Below, one piece after another: positions 1-54,300 of a stretch of 64,000 nucleotides of DNA. Position 1 is the stretch's first letter, and the number at the start of each line of letters is the position of its first letter. Origin of the DNA: Escherichia coli (GTDB lineage: Bacteria > Pseudomonadota > Gammaproteobacteria > Enterobacterales > Enterobacteriaceae); assembly GCF_022846255.1 (NCBI RefSeq), contig NZ_AP025682.1. One strand, 5' to 3'. Under the pieces are notes generated by a model, which worked only from the letters and a program-made list of their open reading frames with translations, ran no database searches and had not been told where the DNA came from. A program made the translations under genes and the position numbers.

Positions 1-184
1 ACCTCGCACGTTTTGACTCATATTCTGACAACACAGCGACACCTGGGCTAATTCGAAAAACAACGTCCTGCCACCGGATGGTGATGTTAAGGCATCTGAT
101 TCGGCCTGCGCCCTCGCGTAGGCCGAATACAGGATCTGCGCAATCAACGGGTAACAAACAGTTGAGTCAATTCAGTGCGCACTT

Positions 185-1738
185 TTATTTGATATCCTTC
201 ACGCGCATACCGTTGAGCTGTTCATCCGTAATGGTGTTGCCCGCTTTGAAGTAATCAACCACCGCGTGATAAACGTAATAACCGCCCGTTGTGTTACGCG
301 CTTTCCCTTCGGTAAAGGCGGTAAAACCATCTCCACCATCAGCAAGGAAACTCTGAGTAGCAATGTGATAAACCGTCGCATCTTCAATGGGTTTGCCATT
401 CAGAGTCAGTGTGATTACCCGCTGACCAACCGGCTTGCTGCTGTCGTACTTCATTTCCAGGCCTTTCGATACCTGTAAAACGCCATTGCTTAAACTTGCG
501 CCGTGTTCCATCAGACTGCGTAATTGTTTACCCGTGAGTTCCATCGTCACCAGTTCGTTGGGGAACGGGAACGTACTGATAACGCCGCCCATCGTGATCG
601 CCCCTGCGGGGATCTCATTGCGGATACCACCAGAGTTTGTTAACGCCAGTTGGGTATTTTTACCCGCTGCTGCCAGTAAAGCGTCAGCCGCCAGGTTCCC
701 GAGGGAAGCCGATTCACCATAGGCACGTTTTAATTCAACCGGCGATTGCGCCACCGTTTGTTGCACCACTTCATCAAGCTTTTTATTCCAGCCGTCGATC
801 ACCTGTTTCGTTTGCGGATCGGGCTTCCACTCGTCAGCGTAAATGGTTTTAAGCTCGAAGTTTTTCACCGTAAAATTATGCGGCTTCTCTTTGTAGTCGA
901 GAACCAGTTTGCCCACATCAATCCCGCCGCTGTCAGTGGAGAGGATGAGCGTATTGCCGACTTTAATCGGTTCCGGCGTACCCACATGTGCATGTCCGGT
1001 GATCAAAATATCCAGCCCTTTCACCTGACTTGCCGTCTGAATATCTTTATCCAACGCGCGACGCACATCTGTGCCTCCCATACTGGACTGGCGGGCCGGA
1101 ACACCTTCATGGATCAGGGCGACGGTCAAATCAACCTTGCCTTTAAGTTCATCGATATAACGTTGTAGCCATTTAATTTCATCACGCGCCTCAATACCCA
1201 CTCGCGTGGCAGCAGATACTGTGTCATTAAAGGCAAATACACCGTGCAAACCTATAACGCCTATTTTCACACCGTCTTTTTCGATGATGGTATAGGGCTT
1301 ATCCCAGAATGATTTACTGCTGTTCTGATAAAAAACATTGCCCTGCACAATCGGGAATTTTGCCTGACTCAACTGTAATAATGTGTTGTCCCAGCCGTGG
1401 TCAAATTCATGGTTGCCTATCGTGACGGCATCAAACGGCATAGTATTCATAATATCGATAATAGCCTTACCTTTGGTCAGGCTGCTGATATATGGCCCGG
1501 TAAAATAGTCGCCCGCATCAAAAAACCATGTCGCTTTATTTTTTGCTTTTTCTTGCTTAACCAGCGTAGTGATATTTGCCCAGCCGCCAATATCCCGTTT
1601 ACCGTTCGCAATCCACGGCACTTTATAAGGCTCTACATGTGCATGGAGGTCGTTAGTATAAATAATGGTGACATCTTTGGCGCAAGCCCAGAACGGCAAT
1701 GTTAATGCGATACCCGCAGCAAGTATTTTAATTTTCAT
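185..1738 (-). CDS. secreted UshA-family metallophosphoesterase / 5'-nucleotidase, paralog 1 (ORF extends to TTG at 1744; first ATG at 1738)
   Basis: N-terminal signal peptide; calcineurin-like phosphoesterase motifs [35 protein letters not shown]; long C-terminal domain as in 5'-nucleotidases; SD-like AAGGGA upstream of ATG. Confidence 0.8.
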
Positions 1739-1797
1739 AAACAATCCCTTTCAGTGAGATAAAGGATTGCTACATTACGTTCTGAAAGACTTATTTA

Positions 1798-1813
1798 TGT
1801 GAGAGTAATCACA
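1798..1813. promoter_or_regulatory. candidate CRP binding site TGTGAgagtaaTCACA in divergent promoter region
   Basis: both half-sites match consensus TGTGA-N6-TCACA exactly; centred about 65 bp from each flanking start codon. Confidence 0.6.
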
Positions 1814-1870
1814 TCCGCAGGGGATAGTTGCCGGACAAAATCAACGACCTTGTGAAATCGTTGGTGATAT

Positions 1871-2995
1871 ATGTCGACTCTGTTTACGATTAATGCCTGT
1901 AAAACGTTCGGTTGCCGAAATTTGGGATTGGCCTCATCGGAAGATTACAGTTGGCCAGACTATAAACTGGGTTATCCGGCACTGCACTGTCGGGCATGTG
2001 GAAGTTACCCGCCGTTGTTTGACGAACAGCAATTTCGTGACTGGTTGTCAGTTCACTTATCTACTTTTGCAACTGAGAAAGGTCATTTCTGCCCGGTATG
2101 TTATGGCACAGACATGATTTGTTATGGTCACAATCCACAGGGTTCGCAACGCATTCAATGCCGTAACTGCAAAAAAGTCTGGACGCCTAAAAAATATCAG
2201 AAAGAAATTACGCATCCCCAGGCCATTGAAACCGTTCAACTGTTCATACCCTTTCAAGGGGCCAGTGCAGTACAAAAACTGTATGTTTTAGTCAGTCTTG
2301 ACGCCACTCGTGGCAACATTCTTCATCTCTCCACGAATTATACGCAACATCAGACAGGAGACAGTCTGCGGTACAGTTACAAGGGCAACACAGAACCAAC
2401 TATGCACCATCGCGATATCGTGCAGAAGGTAGATATGCGTGAAGCGCAATTCTTGCGCCGGAGCCAGTTCGATGAAATTCAGTATGGCAGTGCTGTACTC
2501 AAGCGCAACGGTAAGGGAGCCATACTACGCCCGGTTATCACGGCACACGGGCATTTCAGAATACTGAAAATCCGCTATCCAGATGTCAAAACGCATATTA
2601 TTTCACACGAATGTTTTCTAAGAGGCGCAATTATTACAGCCTGGGCAGATCAGTTCCGCCAACAACAAGGTGAACTTTGGTTCGTAGAAGAAGAAATCAG
2701 TGACAGTAACGCTGATACGCCCTGGCATTTTAAGGGAACGACATACCATGGTTGGTGGCAAAATCAGTGGCAGCGCTGGGAGCAGGGGAATAACTGCAAG
2801 ATGGTCTGCCTACTCACGGGAGCCTGCTTAGAAAGGGGCGCAAATGTTTCTCTGGCAACCAGTCGTTGTTTTATCACATGGCTGACAGACCAACACGACT
2901 TTACCCAAAGCGCGTTATTATCCGCAGGTCGCGTAACACAAATGCTGACCTCACTGGCGTTAAAATACAATGAATCGCTCACTCCATCTTGTTAG
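1871..2995 (+). CDS. zinc-ribbon protein of unknown function; second Cys cluster resembles IS1 InsA / transposase-type zinc ribbon; possibly transposase-derived
   Basis: 374-aa ORF; C-x4-C...C-x2-C and CPVC-x19-CRNC-x3-W motifs in first 100 aa; no terminal inverted repeats seen around it. Confidence 0.5.
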   Translation: MSTLFTINACKTFGCRNLGLASSEDYSWPDYKLGYPALHCRACGSYPPLFDEQQFRDWLSVHLSTFATEKGHFCPVCYGTDMICYGHNPQGSQRIQCRNCKKVWTPKKYQKEITHPQAIETVQLFIPFQGASAVQKLYVLVSLDATRGNILHLSTNYTQHQTGDSLRYSYKGNTEPTMHHRDIVQKVDMREAQFLRRSQFDEIQYGSAVLKRNGKGAILRPVITAHGHFRILKIRYPDVKTHIISHECFLRGAIITAWADQFRQQQGELWFVEEEISDSNADTPWHFKGTTYHGWWQNQWQRWEQGNNCKMVCLLTGACLERGANVSLATSRCFITWLTDQHDFTQSALLSAGRVTQMLTSLALKYNESLTPSC

Positions 2996-3114
2996 TCAAT
3001 ACACTCGACAAACGACCATAAATTAAGAGAGAGCACTACCTTTCATTTAATTAAATATATAAATGTATGACCGTGAAATATAATCATGGTCAATGTTTAA
3101 TTAATAACATTATT

Positions 3115-3130
3115 TGTTACTAAGATCACA
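3115..3130. promoter_or_regulatory. weak CRP-like site TGTTActaagaTCACA upstream of nucleotidase paralog 2
   Basis: one perfect half-site, one with a G-to-T change; about 100 bp upstream of start codon. Confidence 0.3.
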
Positions 3131-3162
3131 CAATACTTTTCTGAACTATGCTTACATAAAAT

Positions 3163-3179
3163 AAGACACGATGTGTCTT
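3163..3179 (+). terminator. hairpin aagacac-gat-gtgtctt followed by T-rich tract
   Basis: 7-bp stem, 3-nt loop, then tttatttaaa; lies between zinc-ribbon gene and paralog 2. Confidence 0.35.
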
Positions 3180-3224
3180 TTATTTAAATAATTCAACAAA
3201 TGTAACACACCCTATCCAGGAGGG

Positions 3225-4778
3225 ATGATGAAAACTGTATTTACAACATTATCAGTCATATTCGGCGTGATATTTTCTCACAGTGTTCTAGCTCAGGACG
3301 TTACTATTTATTATACGAATGACATTCACGCACATGTCAATCCGGCAAAAATCATCGCTGTTGATAAGAACAGACTTATAGGTGGTATGGCTAATATTGC
3401 AGGCATCGTTAATGAAGCGAAGAAAAAAAGCAAAGATGTGTTTTTCTTTGATGCAGGCGACTATTTTACCGGGCCGTATATCAGCACCCTGACCAAAGGT
3501 GAAGCTATTATTGATATCATGAACACTATGCCCTTTGATGCGGTGTCTGTTGGTAATCACGAGTTCGATCACGGTGTGCCCAATATGGTGTCTCAGTTAT
3601 CAAAAGCAAAATTTCCCATTCTGCTGGGAAATATCTACTACACCGATACGAATAAACCAGTTTGGGATCATCCGTGGACCATTATCGAAAAAGATGGTTT
3701 AAAGATTGGTGTGATTGGATTGCATGGCGCATTCGCTTTCTATGATACAGTCGCGGCAAAAGCACGTGAAGGCGTAGAAGCCAGAGACGAAATTAAATAT
3801 TTAAATAAAGCACTTGCAGAATTAAAAGGTAAAGTCGACATTACCGTTTTGCTAATTCACGAAGGTGTCCCGGCGCGTCAATCAAGCTTTGGTAGTAAAG
3901 ATGTGGAGCGGCTACTACAGGCAGATATTGAGACAGCTAAAAAAGTGAATGGTGTTGATGTCTTAATTACCGGTCACGCACATGTCGGAACACCGCAACC
4001 AATAAAAGTTAATAACACATTAATTGTATCTACCGATGCATACGGCACCAACATCGGAAAACTTGTGCTTGATTACAATCCGAAAACGAAGAAAATTGAT
4101 AGTTATAATGGTGAGTTAATCACCATCTTTGCAGATCAATTTAAACCTGACACCATCGTTCAAAATACTATTGATAAATGGAGTGCAAAGCTTAACAAAA
4201 TAACACAGGAAGTTGTCGGCCATTCTCCCGTAGTTTTAACACGTGAGTATGGTAGTTCCTCTTCTACCGGCAACCTTATTCTTGATGCAATGATGGAAAA
4301 AACACCTGATGCCGTTGCCGGATTTCAAAATAGCGGTGGGATGCGAGCTGATTTTCCTAAAGGCGATATCACACTGGGAGATGTTATTAGCACATTCCCC
4401 TTTAATAATGACCTCATCGAGATGGATTTGACGGGCCGCGATCTCAAATCATTGATGACGCATGCAACCAATCTAACTAACGGTGTGTTACAAGTTTCTA
4501 AAAGTGTTGCGGTTGTCTATGACAGCAAAAAACCACTCAACCAACGGTTAATCTCTTTCACCATTAACGGCAAACCCGTGGAAGATAATCAAACATATCG
4601 TATTGCCACGCACTCCTTTTGTGCCAGTGGTGGTGACGGTTTTGAAGCATTTTTGAATGGAAAAAATGTGAAAACGATACCGGGAACAACCTCGGCGGAA
4701 TCTATCATCGATTATTTCAAAAATCACAAGCCTATCACCCCAGACTTAACTAAACGAGTCATGGACGTCGCCAAATAA
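3225..4778 (+). CDS. secreted UshA-family metallophosphoesterase / 5'-nucleotidase, paralog 2 (start may be second ATG at 3228)
   Basis: signal peptide ending VLA-QDV; motifs [35 protein letters not shown]; AT-rich coding sequence. Confidence 0.8.
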   Translation: MMKTVFTTLSVIFGVIFSHSVLAQDVTIYYTNDIHAHVNPAKIIAVDKNRLIGGMANIAGIVNEAKKKSKDVFFFDAGDYFTGPYISTLTKGEAIIDIMNTMPFDAVSVGNHEFDHGVPNMVSQLSKAKFPILLGNIYYTDTNKPVWDHPWTIIEKDGLKIGVIGLHGAFAFYDTVAAKAREGVEARDEIKYLNKALAELKGKVDITVLLIHEGVPARQSSFGSKDVERLLQADIETAKKVNGVDVLITGHAHVGTPQPIKVNNTLIVSTDAYGTNIGKLVLDYNPKTKKIDSYNGELITIFADQFKPDTIVQNTIDKWSAKLNKITQEVVGHSPVVLTREYGSSSSTGNLILDAMMEKTPDAVAGFQNSGGMRADFPKGDITLGDVISTFPFNNDLIEMDLTGRDLKSLMTHATNLTNGVLQVSKSVAVVYDSKKPLNQRLISFTINGKPVEDNQTYRIATHSFCASGGDGFEAFLNGKNVKTIPGTTSAESIIDYFKNHKPITPDLTKRVMDVAK

Positions 4779-4818
4779 AATCTCATTTATCAGTCAATTT
4801 ATTTAACAAGGAATGTGA

Positions 4819-6438
4819 ATGAAAACAGCGCAGTGTACTTTACTTGCCGCAACATTGCTGACTATTTTTTCGACCTCAGTCATGGCGCAGGATGTCACGA
4901 TTATTTATACCAATGATCTTCACGCTCATGTGGATTCCTATAAAGTACCGTATGTCGCAGACGGAAAACGCGACATTGGTGGCTTTGCCAATATATCCAC
5001 GTTAGTAAAACAAGAGAAAGCCAAAAATAAAGCCACCTTTTATTTTGATGCTGGAGACTATTTCACCGGGCCATATATCAGTAGCCTGACAAAGGGCGAA
5101 GCAATAATTGATATTATGAATACCATGCCTTTTGACGCAGTATCAATCGGTAATCATGAGTTTGACCATGGCTGGGATAATGCCCTCCGACAATTAAGCA
5201 AAGCGAATTTCCCTGTTTTATTAGGCAATGTTTATCATAAAGAGAGTGAGAAACCCTTCTGGAACAAGCCCTACACCATCCTGGAAAAAGATGGCATCAA
5301 GATTGGTATTGTTGGGCTACACGGCGTATTTGCATTTAATGACACGGTCTCGGAGCTCTCTCTCCAGGGACTCGATAATGACAATAATAACCGATTTGAT
5401 AAATCTTCCGCGACCCTCAAGAATCAGGGGATTGAAGCACGTGATGAAGTGAAGTATTTGCAGCATTATATCGATGAGTTACGTGATAAGGTTGACCTCA
5501 CCGTGGCGCTGGTTCATGAAGGCGTACCGGCGCGTCAGTCCAGCATTGGCAATACAGATGTTAGACGTGCGCTGGATAAAGATATTCAAACCGCAAGCAA
5601 GGTGAAAGGATTGGATATTCTGATTACCGGGCATGCCCACGTCGGAACGCCAGAACCAATCAAAGTCGGCAACACCTTAATCCTTTCGACTGACAGTGGC
5701 GGTATCGATATTGGTAAATTAATCCTTGATGTCAACCCTACAGCTCGTACTCATAAAGTGAAGAGCTTTGAGCTGAAAACGGTTTATGCCGATGAATGGA
5801 TACCCGATCCAACCACACAAAAAGTTATCAATGGCTGGAATAAAAAACTGGCGGATCTTGTACGCCAACCAGTCGGTGAATCATCGATTGCATTAACTCG
5901 TGCCTACGGTGAGTCATCGCAACTTGGCAACCTGTTTACCGATGCAATGCTTGTCGCTGCACCGACTGCACAAATTGCGTTGATAAACTCCGGCAGTTTA
6001 CGTGCTGATATAAATGCAGGCACGATTACCTTTGGTGACATTACCAGTACATTCCCCTTCAAGAATGAACTTACTGAAATGGATCTCAGCGGTAAGGATC
6101 TGCGTAACCTACTGGAACACGGGGCATCGCTTACCAATGGCATCCTGCAAATGTCAAAAGGCGCAGAAATGCGCTATACCCTGCAGAAACCAGTAGGTCA
6201 GCGCATTGTATCTTTTAAAATTAATGGTGAAGAGATCGTTGATACGAATATTTACCATGTTGCGACTACGACTTTCCTTGCACTTGGGGGCGATGGTTTT
6301 CTGGCATTCAAAGAAGGGAAAAATGTCCAGGTCCGCGCCGGAAATAACATGTCCAATGTCGTAATCGATTATTTTAAGAAAGGCCACAAGATTACTCCTG
6401 CACAGGTAAATGAAATGCGGGTAGAAGTAAGCAAATAA
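4819..6438 (+). CDS. secreted UshA-family metallophosphoesterase / 5'-nucleotidase, paralog 3 (carries an 18-aa insertion relative to paralogs 1 and 2)
   Basis: signal peptide ending VMA-QDV; same five phosphoesterase motifs; SD AAGGAA upstream; starts 40 bp after paralog 2. Confidence 0.8.
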   Translation: MKTAQCTLLAATLLTIFSTSVMAQDVTIIYTNDLHAHVDSYKVPYVADGKRDIGGFANISTLVKQEKAKNKATFYFDAGDYFTGPYISSLTKGEAIIDIMNTMPFDAVSIGNHEFDHGWDNALRQLSKANFPVLLGNVYHKESEKPFWNKPYTILEKDGIKIGIVGLHGVFAFNDTVSELSLQGLDNDNNNRFDKSSATLKNQGIEARDEVKYLQHYIDELRDKVDLTVALVHEGVPARQSSIGNTDVRRALDKDIQTASKVKGLDILITGHAHVGTPEPIKVGNTLILSTDSGGIDIGKLILDVNPTARTHKVKSFELKTVYADEWIPDPTTQKVINGWNKKLADLVRQPVGESSIALTRAYGESSQLGNLFTDAMLVAAPTAQIALINSGSLRADINAGTITFGDITSTFPFKNELTEMDLSGKDLRNLLEHGASLTNGILQMSKGAEMRYTLQKPVGQRIVSFKINGEEIVDTNIYHVATTTFLALGGDGFLAFKEGKNVQVRAGNNMSNVVIDYFKKGHKITPAQVNEMRVEVSK

Positions 6439-6514
6439 CAAAAACTTATAATACCATTCATTCACTGGATGACATTATTTCTCTCTAAATCAACAATATA
6501 TAAGAGATATATTT

Positions 6515-7375
6515 ATGTATATAAAAAAGCACTGGATAGCTTTATCCATTCTATTAATACCTTGCATTGGAAACGCTCAGGAAATTAAAATTGATGAAAG
6601 CTCGTTACATCAAAGCTTGAATGTCATTGGTCGCACAGACTCTCGCTTTGGCCCAAGACTGACTAACGACCTCTACCCTGAATATACTGTAGCAGGAAGA
6701 AAAGACTGGTTTGATTTTTATGGTTATGTTGATCTACCGAAATTCTTTGGCGTCGGCAGTCACTATGATGTTGGGATCTGGGATGAAGGCTCACCACTAT
6801 TTACGGAAATAGAACCTCGGTTTTCCATTGACAAATTGACCGGATTAAATCTTGCGTTCGGCCCATTTAAAGAATGGTTCATTGCAAACAACTATGTCTA
6901 TGATATGGGTGACAACCAGTCATCCCGGCAAAGTACATGGTATATGGGGCTTGGTACAGATATCGACACGGGTCTACCAATTAAGCTTTCTGCCAATATA
7001 TACGCCAAGTATCAGTGGCAAAACTATGGTGCCGCTAATGAAAATGAATGGGACGGATATCGATTCAAAATAAAATATAGCATCCCTCTTACAAATTTAT
7101 TCGGAGGGCGATTGGTATACAATAGTTTTACTAACTTTGATTTTGGCTCCGATCTTGCGGACAAGTCACACAATAATAAACGAACCAGTAATGCTATTGC
7201 TTCAAGCCATATCCTTTCCCTTCTATATGAACACTGGAAATTTGCATTTACACTACGTTATTTTCACAACGGTGGACAATGGAATGCGGGAGAGAAGGTT
7301 AACTTCGGAGATGGTCCATTTGAATTAAAAAATACAGGATGGGGAACCTATACTACTATTGGTTATCAATTTTAA
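6515..7375 (+). CDS. Tsx-like nucleoside-specific outer-membrane channel (Tsx/OmpK family paralog)
   Basis: 286 aa, signal peptide, C-terminal Phe; blocks such as [37 protein letters not shown] and [26 protein letters not shown] recalled from Tsx. Confidence 0.7.
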
Positions 7376-7472
7376 ATTAGGTGACATTTTAGATATTGTT
7401 ACTTAATGTCATTTTGTAATTGTCATTAATAACTTCACCATTCACTCTGTTACTTCATCGCTCAACACAAAA

Positions 7473-7492
7473 GCCCCCTTATTACCGGGGGC
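7473..7492 (-). terminator. hairpin gccccc-N8-gggggc with T-rich tract on the minus strand
   Basis: inverted repeat followed on minus strand by ttttgtgtt. Confidence 0.35.
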
Positions 7493-7556
7493 ACTGACCA
7501 AAGGCAAAATGACAATCAATCACCACTTCCCCAGGAAGAGGTTTCGGGGTGACAAC

Positions 7557-7583
7557 AAAAGCTGGCAACTGCCAGCTTTTGTT
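7557..7583. terminator. bidirectional intrinsic terminator between Tsx-like gene and metL
   Basis: 8-bp stem agctggca/tgccagct flanked by an A-run and a T-run. Confidence 0.6.
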
Positions 7584-7592
7584 CAATAATCA

Positions 7593-37583: not shown

Positions 37584-37667
37584 GTAGGCAGGATAAGGCG
37601 TTTACGCCGCATCCGGCATTTGAGCAGGATGCCTGATGCGACGCTGATAGCGTCTTATCAGGCCTAC
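37584..37667. repeat. pair of inverted REP elements (BIME) between cpxA and yiiM
   Basis: gtaggcaggataaggcgtttacgccgcatccggca and gcctgatgcgacgctgatagcgtcttatcaggcctac. Confidence 0.8.
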
Positions 37668-46175: not shown

Positions 46176-46675
46176 GCCGGATGCGGCACAAGTGCCTTAT
46201 CCGGCCTACAGGTCAGCAACAGTTGTAGCCCTGATAAGACGCGACAGCGTCGCATCAGGCATTGATTGCCGGATGCGGCACGAGTGCCTTATCCGGCCTA
46301 CGGGTCGGCAATAGTTGTAGGCCTGATAAGACGCGACAGCGTCGCATCAGGCATTGATTGCCGGATGCGGCACGAGCGCCATATCCGGCCTACGGGTCGG
46401 CAATAGTTGTAGGCCTGATAAGACGCGACAGCGTCGCATCAGGCATTGATTGCCGGATGCGGCACGAGTGCCTTATCCGGCCTACGGGTCAGCAACAGTT
46501 GTAGGCCTGATAAGACGCGACAGCGTCGCATCAGGCATTGATTGCCGGATGCGGCACAAGTGCCTTATCCGGCCTACGGGTCGGCAATAGTTGTAGGCCT
46601 GATAAGACGCGACAGCGTCGCATCAGGCATTGATTGCCGGATGCGGCACGAGTGCCTTATCCGGCCTACGGGTCG
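46176..46675. repeat. tandem array of about 5.4 copies of a 92-bp BIME unit (two inverted REP elements per unit) between rhaA and rhaD
   Basis: unit starts at 46176, 46268, 46360, 46452, 46544 and 46636 with exact 92-bp period and a few point differences. Confidence 0.9.
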
Positions 46676-51318: not shown

Positions 51319-54300
51319 ATGCAGGTCAGCAGAAGGCAGTTCTTTAAGATCTGCGCTGGCGGTATGGCAGGCACCACGGCGGCGGCACTGGGTTTTGCAC
51401 CCAGCGTAGCACTCGCGGAAACCCGGCAGTATAAACTGCTGCGCACCCGCGAAACCCGTAATACCTGCACCTATTGTTCCGTAGGCTGTGGGCTGTTGAT
51501 GTACAGCCTCGGTGACGGAGCAAAAAACGCCAAAGCATCTATCTTCCATATCGAAGGTGACCCGGATCACCCGGTCAACCGCGGAGCACTTTGTCCGAAA
51601 GGCGCTGGCCTGGTGGATTTCATCCACTCCGAAAGCCGTCTGAAGTTTCCGGAATACCGTGCGCCAGGTTCTGATAAATGGCAGCAAATCAGTTGGGAAG
51701 AGGCGTTTGATCGCATCGCCAAACTGATGAAAGAAGACCGCGATGCAAACTACATTGCGCAAAACGCCGAAGGCGTGACTGTTAACCGCTGGCTCTCCAC
51801 CGGGATGCTGTGTGCTTCCGCGTCGAGTAACGAAACCGGCTATTTAACGCAAAAATTCTCCCGCGCGCTGGGTATGCTCGCGGTCGACAACCAGGCGCGT
51901 GTCTGACACGGACCAACGGTAGCAAGTCTTGCTCCAACATTTGGTCGCGGTGCGATGACCAACCACTGGGTCGACATCAAGAATGCCAACCTCGTCGTGG
52001 TGATGGGCGGTAACGCCGCTGAAGCTCACCCGGTCGGGTTCCGCTGGGCGATGGAAGCCAAAATTCACAACGGCGCGAAGCTGATTGTGATCGATCCTCG
52101 CTTTACGCGTACGGCGGCGGTGGCTGACTACTATGCCCCTATCCGTTCCGGTACTGACATTGCTTTCCTGTCAGGCGTATTGCTGTACCTGCTGAACAAT
52201 GAAAAATTCAACCGCGAATACACCGAAGCCTATACCAACGCCAGCCTGATCGTGCGTGAGGATTACGGCTTTGAAGATGGCCTGTTCACCGGCTACGACG
52301 CGGAAAAACGCAAGTACGATAAGTCCACCTGGACTTACGAACTGGACGAAAACGGCTTCGCCAAACGCGATACTACCCTGCAACATCCACGTTGCGTGTG
52401 GAACTTGCTGAAACAGCACGTTTCCCGCTACACGCCAGATGTGGTTGAAAACATCTGTGGTACGCCAAAAGACGCATTCCTGAAAGTCTGCGAATACATC
52501 GCCGAAACCAGTGCTCACGATAAAACAGCGTCGTTCCTCTACGCCCTCGGCTGGACGCAACACTCCATCGGTGCGCAGAACATCCGTACGATGGCGATGA
52601 TCCAGTTGCTGCTCGGCAATATGGGGATGGCTGGCGGCGGCGTTAACGCCCTGCGCGGTCACTCCAATATTCAGGGGCTGACCGACCTGGGGCTGCTGTC
52701 GCAGAGTCTGCCAGGTTACATGACGTTGCCAAGCGAGAAGCAGACCGATCTGCAAACTTACCTCGCTGCCAACACGCCAAAACCACTGCTGGAAGGCCAG
52801 GTCAACTACTGGGGCAACTACCCGAAATTCTTCGTCTCAATGATGAAGGCATTCTTTGGTGATAAAGCGACGGCGGAAAATAGCTGGGGCTTTGACTGGT
52901 TGCCGAAGTGGGATAAAGGCTACGACGTCCTGCAATACTTCGAGATGATGAAAGAGGGCAAGGTCAATGGCTATATCTGCCAGGGCTTTAACCCTGTTGC
53001 CTCATTCCCGAACAAAAACAAAGTGATCGGCTGTCTGTCGAAGCTGAAATTCCTCGTAACTATCGACCCGCTGAACACTGAAACCTCTAACTTCTGGCAG
53101 AACCACGGTGAGCTGAACGAAGTTGACTCGTCGAAGATCCAGACCGAAGTGTTCCGTCTGCCATCGACCTGCTTCGCGGAAGAGAACGGTTCAATCGTTA
53201 ACTCTGGTCGCTGGTTGCAATGGCACTGGAAAGGTGCGGACGCCCCGGGGATTGCGCTGACTGATGGCGAGATCCTCTCCGGTATCTTCCTGCGCTTGCG
53301 CAAGATGTATGCCGAACAGGGTGGTGCGAACCCGGACCAGGTGCTGAACATGACCTGGAACTACGCCATTCCGCATGAGCCATCTTCAGAAGAAGTGGCA
53401 ATGGAGAGCAACGGCAAAGCGCTGGCCGATATTACCGACCCGGCAACCGGTGCGGTTATCGTCAAGAAAGGCCAACAACTTAGCTCGTTCGCCCAACTGC
53501 GCGATGACGGTACAACCTCCTGTGGCTGCTGGATTTTCGCCGGTAGCTGGACGCCGGAAGGCAACCAGATGGCGCGTCGTGATAACGCCGATCCGTCTGG
53601 CCTCGGTAACACGCTGGGCTGGGCATGGGCATGGCCGCTTAACCGCCGCATTCTGTATAACCGCGCCTCCGCAGATCCGCAGGGTAACCCATGGGATCCG
53701 AAGCGTCAGTTGCTGAAATGGGACGGCACTAAGTGGACCGGCTGGGATATTCCGGATTACAGCGCAGCGCCTCCGGGCAGCGGCGTAGGGCCGTTTATCA
53801 TGCAGCAGGAAGGCATGGGACGTCTGTTTGCCCTCGATAAGATGGCGGAAGGTCCGTTCCCGGAACACTACGAGCCGTTTGAAACGCCGCTGGGAACTAA
53901 CCCGCTGCATCCAAACGTTATCTCGAACCCGGCGGCGCGTATCTTTAAAGACGACGCCGAAGCATTGGGTAAAGCCGATAAGTTCCCGTATGTCGGAACC
54001 ACCTATCGTCTGACCGAGCACTTCCACTACTGGACCAAACACGCGCTGTTGAATGCGATTTTGCAACCAGAGCAGTTTGTGGAAATCGGGGAGTCGCTGG
54101 CGAATAAACTTGGCATTGCCCAGGGCGATACTGTGAAAGTCTCCTCCAACCGTGGCTATATCAAAGCCAAAGCGGTAGTGACCAAACGTATTCGCACGCT
54201 GAAAGCAAACGGCAAAGATATCGATACCATCGGTATTCCGATTCACTGGGGCTATGAAGGTGTTGCGAAAAAAGGCTTTATTGCCAATACGTTGACGCCA

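Follow-up and report, generated by a model that had tools for sequence, protein, structure and literature searches.

Domesticated transposases are an already known kind of regulator. Many eukaryotic transcription factors derive from DDE transposases, TldR of bacteria derives from TnpB, and InsA, encoded by the insertion sequence (IS) IS1, is a repressor in its own right, with the IS1 ends as its binding sites. For DDE transposases, examples of domestication as regulators are well documented among eukaryotes but scarcely at all among bacteria, and our literature searches found no bacterial regulator family described as derived from an IS1-type DDE transposase. Here we analyse the gene of a 374-amino-acid protein within a 64,000-nucleotide stretch of Escherichia coli contig NZ_AP025682.1 (the window), where it stands divergently to the 5′-nucleotidase gene nuc5_a in an island between metF and metL. 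We propose, with moderate confidence, that the protein is a domesticated descendant of an IS1-type (InsAB′-like) transposase, now a host protein, and most likely a local CRP-linked transcription factor of a nucleotide/nucleoside scavenging unit. A bacterial family derived from IS1-type DDE transposases and tied to CRP and nucleotide scavenging would be new.

The family of the 374-amino-acid protein has the zinc ribbon pattern CPxC...QR..C..C[RK]K.W in common with InsA and InsAB′ of IS1, the helix-turn-helix (HTH) that follows the ribbon in its relatives aligns with InsA residues 4-87, and the C-terminal domain of the protein is structurally nearest to the IS1 transposase. As InsA acts as a repressor, regulatory DNA binding would already have been present in the ancestor. 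Unlike IS1, the gene consists of a single, frameshift-free open reading frame (ORF), lacks terminal repeats and is present as one fixed copy; its product has a further Cys4 module at the N-terminus, a β insertion rich in Trp and a helical bundle at the C-terminus, the catalytic Asp positions appear to be lost and the HTH is deleted. Nor are the IS1 ends a convincing match to the matrix of the ACCAAC element described below.

The closest regulatory parallel is with promoters under the control of CytR and CRP (tsx, deo, nupC, udp, cdd). The class of target is alike, comprising a Tsx-type channel, enzymes of nucleotide breakdown and, in a relative, deo and nupC, and both have a CRP site near −41, a position that is predicted for the present promoter, with a second, here putative, protein site ~52 bp upstream. 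At deoP2 there are two CRP sites at a spacing of ~52 bp, and synergistic upstream activators have the same spacing. CytR is a LacI-family protein recognising GTTGCATT-type repeats; it differs in being encoded separately (15274-16302) and in having an unrelated fold, whereas the candidate site of the 374-amino-acid protein is based on ACCAAC. Divergently encoded LysR-type regulators offer a functional analogy only: the regulator is divergent from its target, with a site upstream of the target promoter and over its own, a layout from which activation and autorepression would be predicted here. There is no kinship of sequence or fold with these proteins, which have a winged HTH in place of the zinc ribbon and a periplasmic-binding-protein-like sensor in place of the dead transposase domain presumed to be the sensor here. 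TldR and the DDE-derived transcription factors of eukaryotes took a similar route, in which the protein of a mobile element gives up catalysis while its sequence-specific recognition of DNA is put to use in host control, but TldR descends from the RuvC-type, RNA-guided TnpB and not from a DDE transposase.

Descent from an IS1-type transposase

The gene product is WP_000105533.1 in RefSeq, a 'hypothetical protein', and is likewise called hypothetical in E. coli O127:H6 E2348/69, whose DNA is 99.3% identical to the phylogroup-B2-like window. Database names for the family are 'cytoplasmic protein', 'hypothetical' or, wrongly, 'IS1 family transposase'. An initial annotation made from the sequence had described an ORF with two four-cysteine clusters, an InsA-like finger and a Trp-rich remainder. 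The ORF, both clusters (Table 1) and the quoted sequence CPVCYGTDMICYGHNPQGSQRIQCRNCKKVW are present as claimed, with an extra cysteine at residue 84, and of 11 tryptophans six fall within residues 266-316. The first zinc-binding module is the best-conserved part of the family, with the motif NxCKxxGCxNxG...LGYxAxHCxxCGxYPP in which N8, C10, K11, C15, C40 and C43 are invariant or nearly so; its predicted local distance difference test (pLDDT) score in the AlphaFold2 model is ~95.

Hidden Markov models (HMMs) matched the single sequence weakly and over residues 74-105 alone (Pfam PF03811, E-value 0.007; NCBIfam IS1_IS1595_Zn, 23.2 bits, below the cut-off of 28). Across Pfam, NCBIfam, PHROGs and PADLOC only the zinc ribbon was recognised, with no defence-system match, no Pfam or NCBIfam match to a LacI-type HTH or a periplasmic-binding-protein fold was found in the protein, and a PDB sequence search returned chance matches such as papillomavirus E6. 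We retrieved 248 homologues, and at the level of the family the InsA-type ribbon is clearly above chance: PF03811 was matched at E ≤ 0.001 by nine of 56 homologues, and hhalign aligned the profile of these 56 members with residues 4-87 of InsAB′ at a probability of 96.4% and an E-value of 1.1e-9. An exhaustive search yielded 123 representative relatives, some of them full-length proteins of 400-530 amino acids with 22-35% identity, in which the IS1 transposase model covers positions 1-81/87, which comprise the zinc ribbon and the HTH.

Sequence HMMs did not detect DDE character in the C-terminal 260 residues, nor did the DDE part of IS1 match. PF12762 (DDE_Tnp_IS1595) had no match in the query or in any of the 56 homologues, and PF12760 (Zn_ribbon_IS1595) matched five members weakly (E ≤ 0.1; best 3.6e-3) and none at E ≤ 0.001. 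Structure prediction, which the initial annotation had proposed as a check, recovered an RNase-H-like DDE domain. Fed with the 56-member family alignment, AlphaFold2 returned a model (pLDDT 93.7; predicted template modelling score 0.93) with two zinc modules and a long helix between them, a β1-β2-β3-α-β4-α-β5-α core, a four-stranded Trp-rich insertion and a helical bundle, and a fold search with the C-terminal domain found RNase-H-like/DDE folds, the top matches outside the family being IS1 transposases. Because of the InsA homology, the IS1-like fold and the failure of PF12762 to match any member, we conclude that the entire protein derives from an IS1-type transposase and not from IS1595. 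The weak resemblance to IS1595 DDE blocks suggested earlier was right as to the fold and wrong as to the kinship.

The model places no conserved acidic residue in β1 (residues 118-127) or after β4 (R220-P221-V222), these positions being mapped by secondary-structure position and not by residue-level superposition. At the third catalytic position E247 is kept and invariant, and the His and Arg residues near it vary little or not at all. Both catalytic Asp positions appear on this basis to have been lost and the protein is predicted to be catalytically dead, in agreement with the earlier impression that the triad is not intact. Isoelectric points of 9.2 for the zinc-ribbon linker and 9.8 for the fold core mark both as basic, consistent with nucleic-acid binding. 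In the enterobacterial clade to which the 374-amino-acid protein belongs the HTH after the ribbon has been deleted, leaving a gap of ~40 residues against the relative P0123; residues 97 to 118 are free of helix in the model, whereas the model of the relative P0143 (pLDDT 90) has three helices in this place. The features of the protein that might bind DNA are its two zinc modules and its basic regions, the InsA-type HTH being missing.

The gene is immobile. A search of 1600-3400 found no terminal inverted repeats flanking it, as had been stated, and the sole long inverted repeat nearby (1635-1675 / 3297-3337) is N-terminal coding sequence of two nucleotidase paralogues. Among 5426 complete E. 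coli genomes the gene occurs once each in 1841 and nuc5_a once each in 1843, the two being virtually never apart; apparent 'plasmid' matches were misassigned chromosome pieces with an identical metF-metL context. A scan of one genome per species, built from a 21-sequence alignment, recovered 59 loci. The divergent pairing with a nucleotidase gene that had been noted in the window recurs in 31 of 35 enterobacterial loci, with nuc5_a 87-99% identical and an intergenic region of 125-132 bp; of the other four, three are truncated by contig ends and one has a partial nucleotidase match. The metF-metL position is common to 21 species. At the same locus the reading frame is intact in more than 30 enterobacterial species, and the ratio of nonsynonymous to synonymous substitution rates (dN/dS) against other alleles is 0.07-0.16; the gene is under purifying selection. 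InsA homology, the predicted dead DDE fold, immobility and selection thus support the proposal of a domesticated transposase-derived DNA-binding protein, one that has lost the HTH in this clade.

Between the B2-type allele and the commoner E. coli allele (L013) the DNA is 92-97% identical over nuc5_a, the intergenic region and most of the part encoding the zinc modules, with a drop to 78% in the stretch 1900-1999. From ~2200, at the junction with the transposase-derived domain, identity falls to 72-80%, which suggests a recombination breakpoint inside the gene. The synonymous divergence (dS) between the two alleles is ~1.0.

The divergent intergenic region and the neighbourhoods of the family

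Conservation of cis-elements was measured on an alignment of 34 enterobacterial intergenic regions. Beside the CRP site lies a candidate operator, the imperfect palindrome ATCAACGA-N10-TCGTTGGT, in which AAATCGTTGGT (1855-1865) is conserved at 90% or more at each position across the 34 loci; all the enterobacterial loci that allowed examination contain its ACCAAC element. ACCAAC and a CRP site separated by 52/53 nt form a composite that the enterobacterial loci all carry and that occurs once in the window against 0.025 expected in shuffles, with one stray match in ~1 Mb of flanking loci. The 1840-1865 element overlaps the predicted transcription start, 5′ untranslated region and Shine-Dalgarno sequence of the 374-amino-acid gene. 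Given the predicted −10 box of nuc5_a, the CRP site would fall at about −41 and ACCAAC between about −90 and −100; given that of the divergent gene, CRP would fall at about −42 and the element would cover −8 to +18.

A matching layout was found in Vibrionaceae operons, in which ACCAACnCAAAnGGTAAC is followed by 52 nt, a CRP site and a −10 box; the composite, with at most one core mismatch, is present in 18 of 22 such loci, and in Photobacterium a variant, ACCCAC or CCACTC, takes the place of ACCAAC. It was also found at locus L005. In Agarivorans it precedes the family gene in two of three loci, the third having ATCAAC for ACCAAC, and at the Salmonella Give locus it occurs three times, before a porin operon, beside the start of the family gene and before a major facilitator superfamily (MFS) gene. 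Because the composite tracks the family to non-orthologous target genes, the ACCAAC element is probably the operator of the family.

These targets differ between lineages. In each of the 22 loci examined in Vibrionaceae and Psychromonas, a 5′-nucleotidase gene precedes the family gene on the same strand; wherever the start could be located, the gap in Vibrionaceae is 20-64 bp. The family gene of Agarivorans stands divergently to nupC-deoC-deoA-deoB-deoD and beside a Bmp/ATP-binding cassette nucleoside transporter. In Salmonella Give it is divergent from an operon encoding a porin, a class-B acid phosphatase and a class-II cyclic-nucleotide phosphodiesterase, and precedes the MFS transporter gene. 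Another clade has it with a Tsx-like channel, a nucleotidase and a sulfatase/phosphodiesterase, and in Enterobacter, Citrobacter and a second E. coli locus (L020, L021, L042) it is divergent from a nuc5_a-nuc5_b-tsx-nuc5_c operon. The neighbours almost always share the theme of external nucleotide breakdown and nucleoside uptake or catabolism.

Other identities for the elements were considered and rejected. As a second CRP site, the upstream element has by inspection a left half unlike TGTGA and an unconserved right half; as an OmpR box, the Vibrio element differs at invariant bases, again by inspection. An origin from the IS1 inverted repeat was also set aside: the ACCAAC matrix, which scores at least 18 bits on all true sites but one, in Agarivorans (9.5), gives the IS1 ends 7.8 and 5.0 bits in a different register, though CCAAC is shared. 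Rfam models had no match at E ≤ 1 over 1-12000, and a hairpin at 1842-1863 varies on one arm without compensation, so that the sequence acts as a DNA element and not as an RNA stem.

Two further repeats were seen in these regions. A 7-nt inverted repeat, CTTTCAG / CTGAAAG (1748-1754 and 1782-1788), encloses the −10 box and the transcription start predicted for nuc5_a and overlaps the ribosome-binding site of that gene. Across the 34 enterobacterial loci each arm is more than 90% conserved, and the repeat may be another operator. At six Vibrionaceae loci (L055, L058, L061, L063, L064 and L068) the region upstream of the nucleotidase gene has a LacI-family-type palindrome, GCAAACG(A/T)TTGC, between ACCAAC and the CRP site; similar to a PurR/CytR-type box, it hints that a further repressor may act there.

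Several observations concern the wider family. Two copies occur in E. coli SCPM-O-B-8794 (L013 and L021) and in Citrobacter wls619 (L031 and L042), one between metF and metL and the other beside the nuc5_a-nuc5_b-tsx-nuc5_c operon, to which L021 adds a nuc5_b-like paralogue. A paralogous clade (~25% identity; 6001-7245 of L072 and 6764-8023 of L010) occupies the dnaJ-nhaA interval of some E. coli, where it follows genes for a Tsx-like channel and a sulfatase/phosphodiesterase. The public gene call of the Photobacterium homologue P0132 (L011, 7836-8000) is too short at the N-terminus, as in-frame sequence upstream of it encodes the first zinc module (VRVNINVCKNFSCKNLG...).

Proposed mechanism and alternative explanations

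We infer from comparative genomics, namely the gene linkage and the family-linked element beside the CRP site, that the 374-amino-acid protein regulates the scavenging unit of three periplasmic 5′-nucleotidases and a Tsx-type channel, in line with the initial annotation, which had named it a possible local regulator of the nucleotidase island. In the mechanism we propose the protein would bind the ACCAAC element, which the predicted promoter puts ~90-100 bp ahead of the nucleotidase start and facing the same side of the helix as CRP (about −41). There it would co-activate the nuc5_a promoter with CRP, while the same binding would cover its own transcription start and lead to autorepression. 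The dead catalytic domain would now be used in oligomerisation and possibly in the sensing of a nucleotide-derived signal. The sign of the regulation and the effector are guesses, as is the suggestion of a ligand pocket made up of R197, D201, Y205, R220, H228, H246, E247 and R251 in what was once the active-site region.

A number of points weigh against this proposal. The main difficulty is that the HTH has been lost in the enterobacterial clade while ACCAAC stays invariant, and this keeps our confidence in a regulator at a moderate level. The N-terminal zinc module may read the invariant ACCAAC core, the HTH having formerly read the variable flank; alternatively, another factor could read ACCAAC and the 374-amino-acid protein would work otherwise. 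The overlap with the Shine-Dalgarno sequence could by itself constrain part of the ACCAAC element in enterobacterial loci, and the promoter positions are predictions. We did not find the ACCAAC-CRP composite at the dnaJ-nhaA paralogue loci, and there is no ACCAAC element in 2996-3224, the nuc5_b promoter region, despite the CRP-like site there; nuc5_b, nuc5_c and tsx may consequently be controlled differently or by read-through. Literature searches on the gene context, the concept, locus tags and accessions turned up no description of the family and no study of the protein or of its binding, expression or mutants.

Among the alternatives the one that survives best, which we consider unlikely, is that the protein is a cytoplasmic partner of the nucleotidases, for example an inhibitor or holder of precursors before export, or a sensor acting on CRP or another protein. 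UshA of E. coli has a classical cytoplasmic inhibitor, the linkage with a 5′-nucleotidase gene is strictly one-to-one in two bacterial orders, the Vibrionaceae spacing after the nucleotidase gene resembles that of an operon partner, and the HTH is gone in the E. coli clade. Such a partner would account poorly, however, for the position of the family beside nupC-deoCABD without an adjacent nucleotidase, or beside the porin/phosphatase/phosphodiesterase and MFS genes, for the InsA-type DNA-binding module kept across the family and the basic character of the protein domains, or for a cis-element that accompanies the family to non-orthologous targets.

We regard as improbable a residual nucleic-acid enzyme with a non-canonical site (H228, H246, E247, R197, D201), acting in DNA or RNA cleavage or in a site-specific reaction at ACCAAC. 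The RNase-H-like fold, the invariant E247 with its conserved His and Arg neighbours and the context of nucleotide catabolism would all suit an enzyme, but every member lacks two of the three carboxylates that would bind metal, and the locus has a stable gene order with no repeats or rearrangement scars.

A functionless, decaying IS1-like remnant carried passively in the nucleotidase island would fit the loss of catalytic residues and of the HTH, and public annotation goes no further than a hypothetical or 'cytoplasmic' protein. It would fit poorly with an intact frame and the low dN/dS values, with motifs that are invariant across orders, a very confident fold prediction and a conserved position, and with 1841 genomes that carry the gene virtually always with nuc5_a; we judge it very improbable and reject the initial annotation's alternative of an inactivated IS remnant. 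An ordinary active insertion sequence of IS1/IS1595 type, to which the zinc ribbon and the automatic naming of some relatives as 'IS1 family transposase' might point, is already refuted by the lack of terminal inverted repeats, of a DDE triad and of any sequence match to the IS1 DDE part or to IS1595 models in a gene with one copy per genome and a chromosomal position fixed across genera.

If the protein is indeed a CRP-linked regulator, it would represent a second, unrecognised layer of control on nucleotide/nucleoside scavenging beside CytR/DeoR and a previously undescribed kind of bacterial regulator, and would explain a variable island found in about one third of E. coli genomes, including the B2-type E2348/69 and the avian pathogenic BEN2908. 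Domestication appears to extend to a whole family, which spans more than 50 species in the Enterobacterales, the Vibrionales and allied marine genera. More tentatively, and with somewhat less than even confidence, we suggest that the protein is the founding member of an as yet undescribed family of IS1-DDE-derived transcription factors in Enterobacterales and Vibrionales, in which zinc modules, with or without the HTH, would read ACCAAC five helical turns from CRP and the dead domain would sense or oligomerise, acting in parallel to CytR on nucleotide/nucleoside scavenging (nucleotidases, Tsx/porin channels, NupC-Deo, phosphodiesterases). The family offers a testable regulon, a candidate operator and a CRP partnership, and the loss of the HTH in one clade is a natural experiment on how such proteins read DNA.

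The metF-metL island and its other features

The island of ~7 kb runs from metF through nuc5_a, the 374-amino-acid gene, nuc5_b, nuc5_c and a tsx paralogue to metL (Table 1). Because Enterobacter, Citrobacter and the second E. coli locus keep nuc5_b, nuc5_c and tsx behind nuc5_a in one operon, these genes (3225..7375) probably share a functional unit with the 374-amino-acid gene. The island appears as 'GR31 metL..metF' in a genome paper of 2026, which takes up its nucleotidases and Tsx and leaves the 374-amino-acid ORF aside.

Table 1. Coordinates in the window of the 374-amino-acid gene, its protein domains, the elements of the adjoining regions and the other genes of the island
Feature	Position	Strand	Remarks
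Coding sequence of the 374-amino-acid protein	1871..2995	+	ATG start; stop codon within end coordinate; from ORF list
Zinc-binding module 1	1892..2008	+	residues 8-46; C10, C15, C40, C43 (cluster 1)
InsA-type zinc ribbon	2090..2182	+	residues 74-104; C74, C77, C97, C100 (cluster 2), W104; followed by basic linker
RNase-H-like (DDE transposase) domain, predicted catalytically dead	2222..2992	+	residues 118-374; Trp-rich β insertion 268-314; C-terminal helical bundle 320-370
CRP site TGTGAGAGTAATCACA	1798..1813	.	zero mismatches to TGTGA-N6-TCACA; middle of divergent promoter region; kept in 34 loci
Candidate operator	1840..1865	-	ACCAAC (1865->1860), starts 52 nt from TGTGA of the CRP site in nucleotidase direction
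Predicted −10 box of nuc5_a, TAATGT	1772..1777	-	TAAnnT conserved inside block TTACGTTCTGAAAG
Predicted −10 box of 374-amino-acid gene, CAAAAT	1836..1841	+	at least 90% of 34 loci
nuc5_a, 5′-nucleotidase/metallophosphatase with signal peptide	185..1744	-	divergent from 374-amino-acid gene; RefSeq start 1738
Second CRP-like site TGTTACTAAGATCACA	3115..3130	.	1 mismatch; upstream of nuc5_b
nuc5_b, nucleotidase paralogue	3225-4778	+	downstream of 374-amino-acid gene
nuc5_c, nucleotidase paralogue	4819-6438	+	downstream of 374-amino-acid gene
tsx paralogue	6515-7375	+	downstream of nuc5_c

The G+C content is ~50% in nuc5_a, 44-48% in the 374-amino-acid gene, 38-46% in nuc5_b, nuc5_c and tsx and 58-61% in metL, and by this measure the right-hand part of the island looks foreign. 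Between the 374-amino-acid gene and nuc5_b lie a 25-nt palindrome, TGACCGTGAAATATAATCATGGTCA (3068-3092), and, just before nuc5_b, a two-way terminator-like hairpin (3163-3179). The gene cytR, encoding the classical repressor of the nucleoside regulon, is only ~12 kb from the island. Elsewhere the window holds ordinary E. coli features, namely a naRNA4/repetitive extragenic palindromic (REP)-type tandem array of five with one more copy, a selenocysteine insertion sequence (SECIS) element and an L31 leader (46228-46666, 37587-37664, 51901-51959, 12730-12782).

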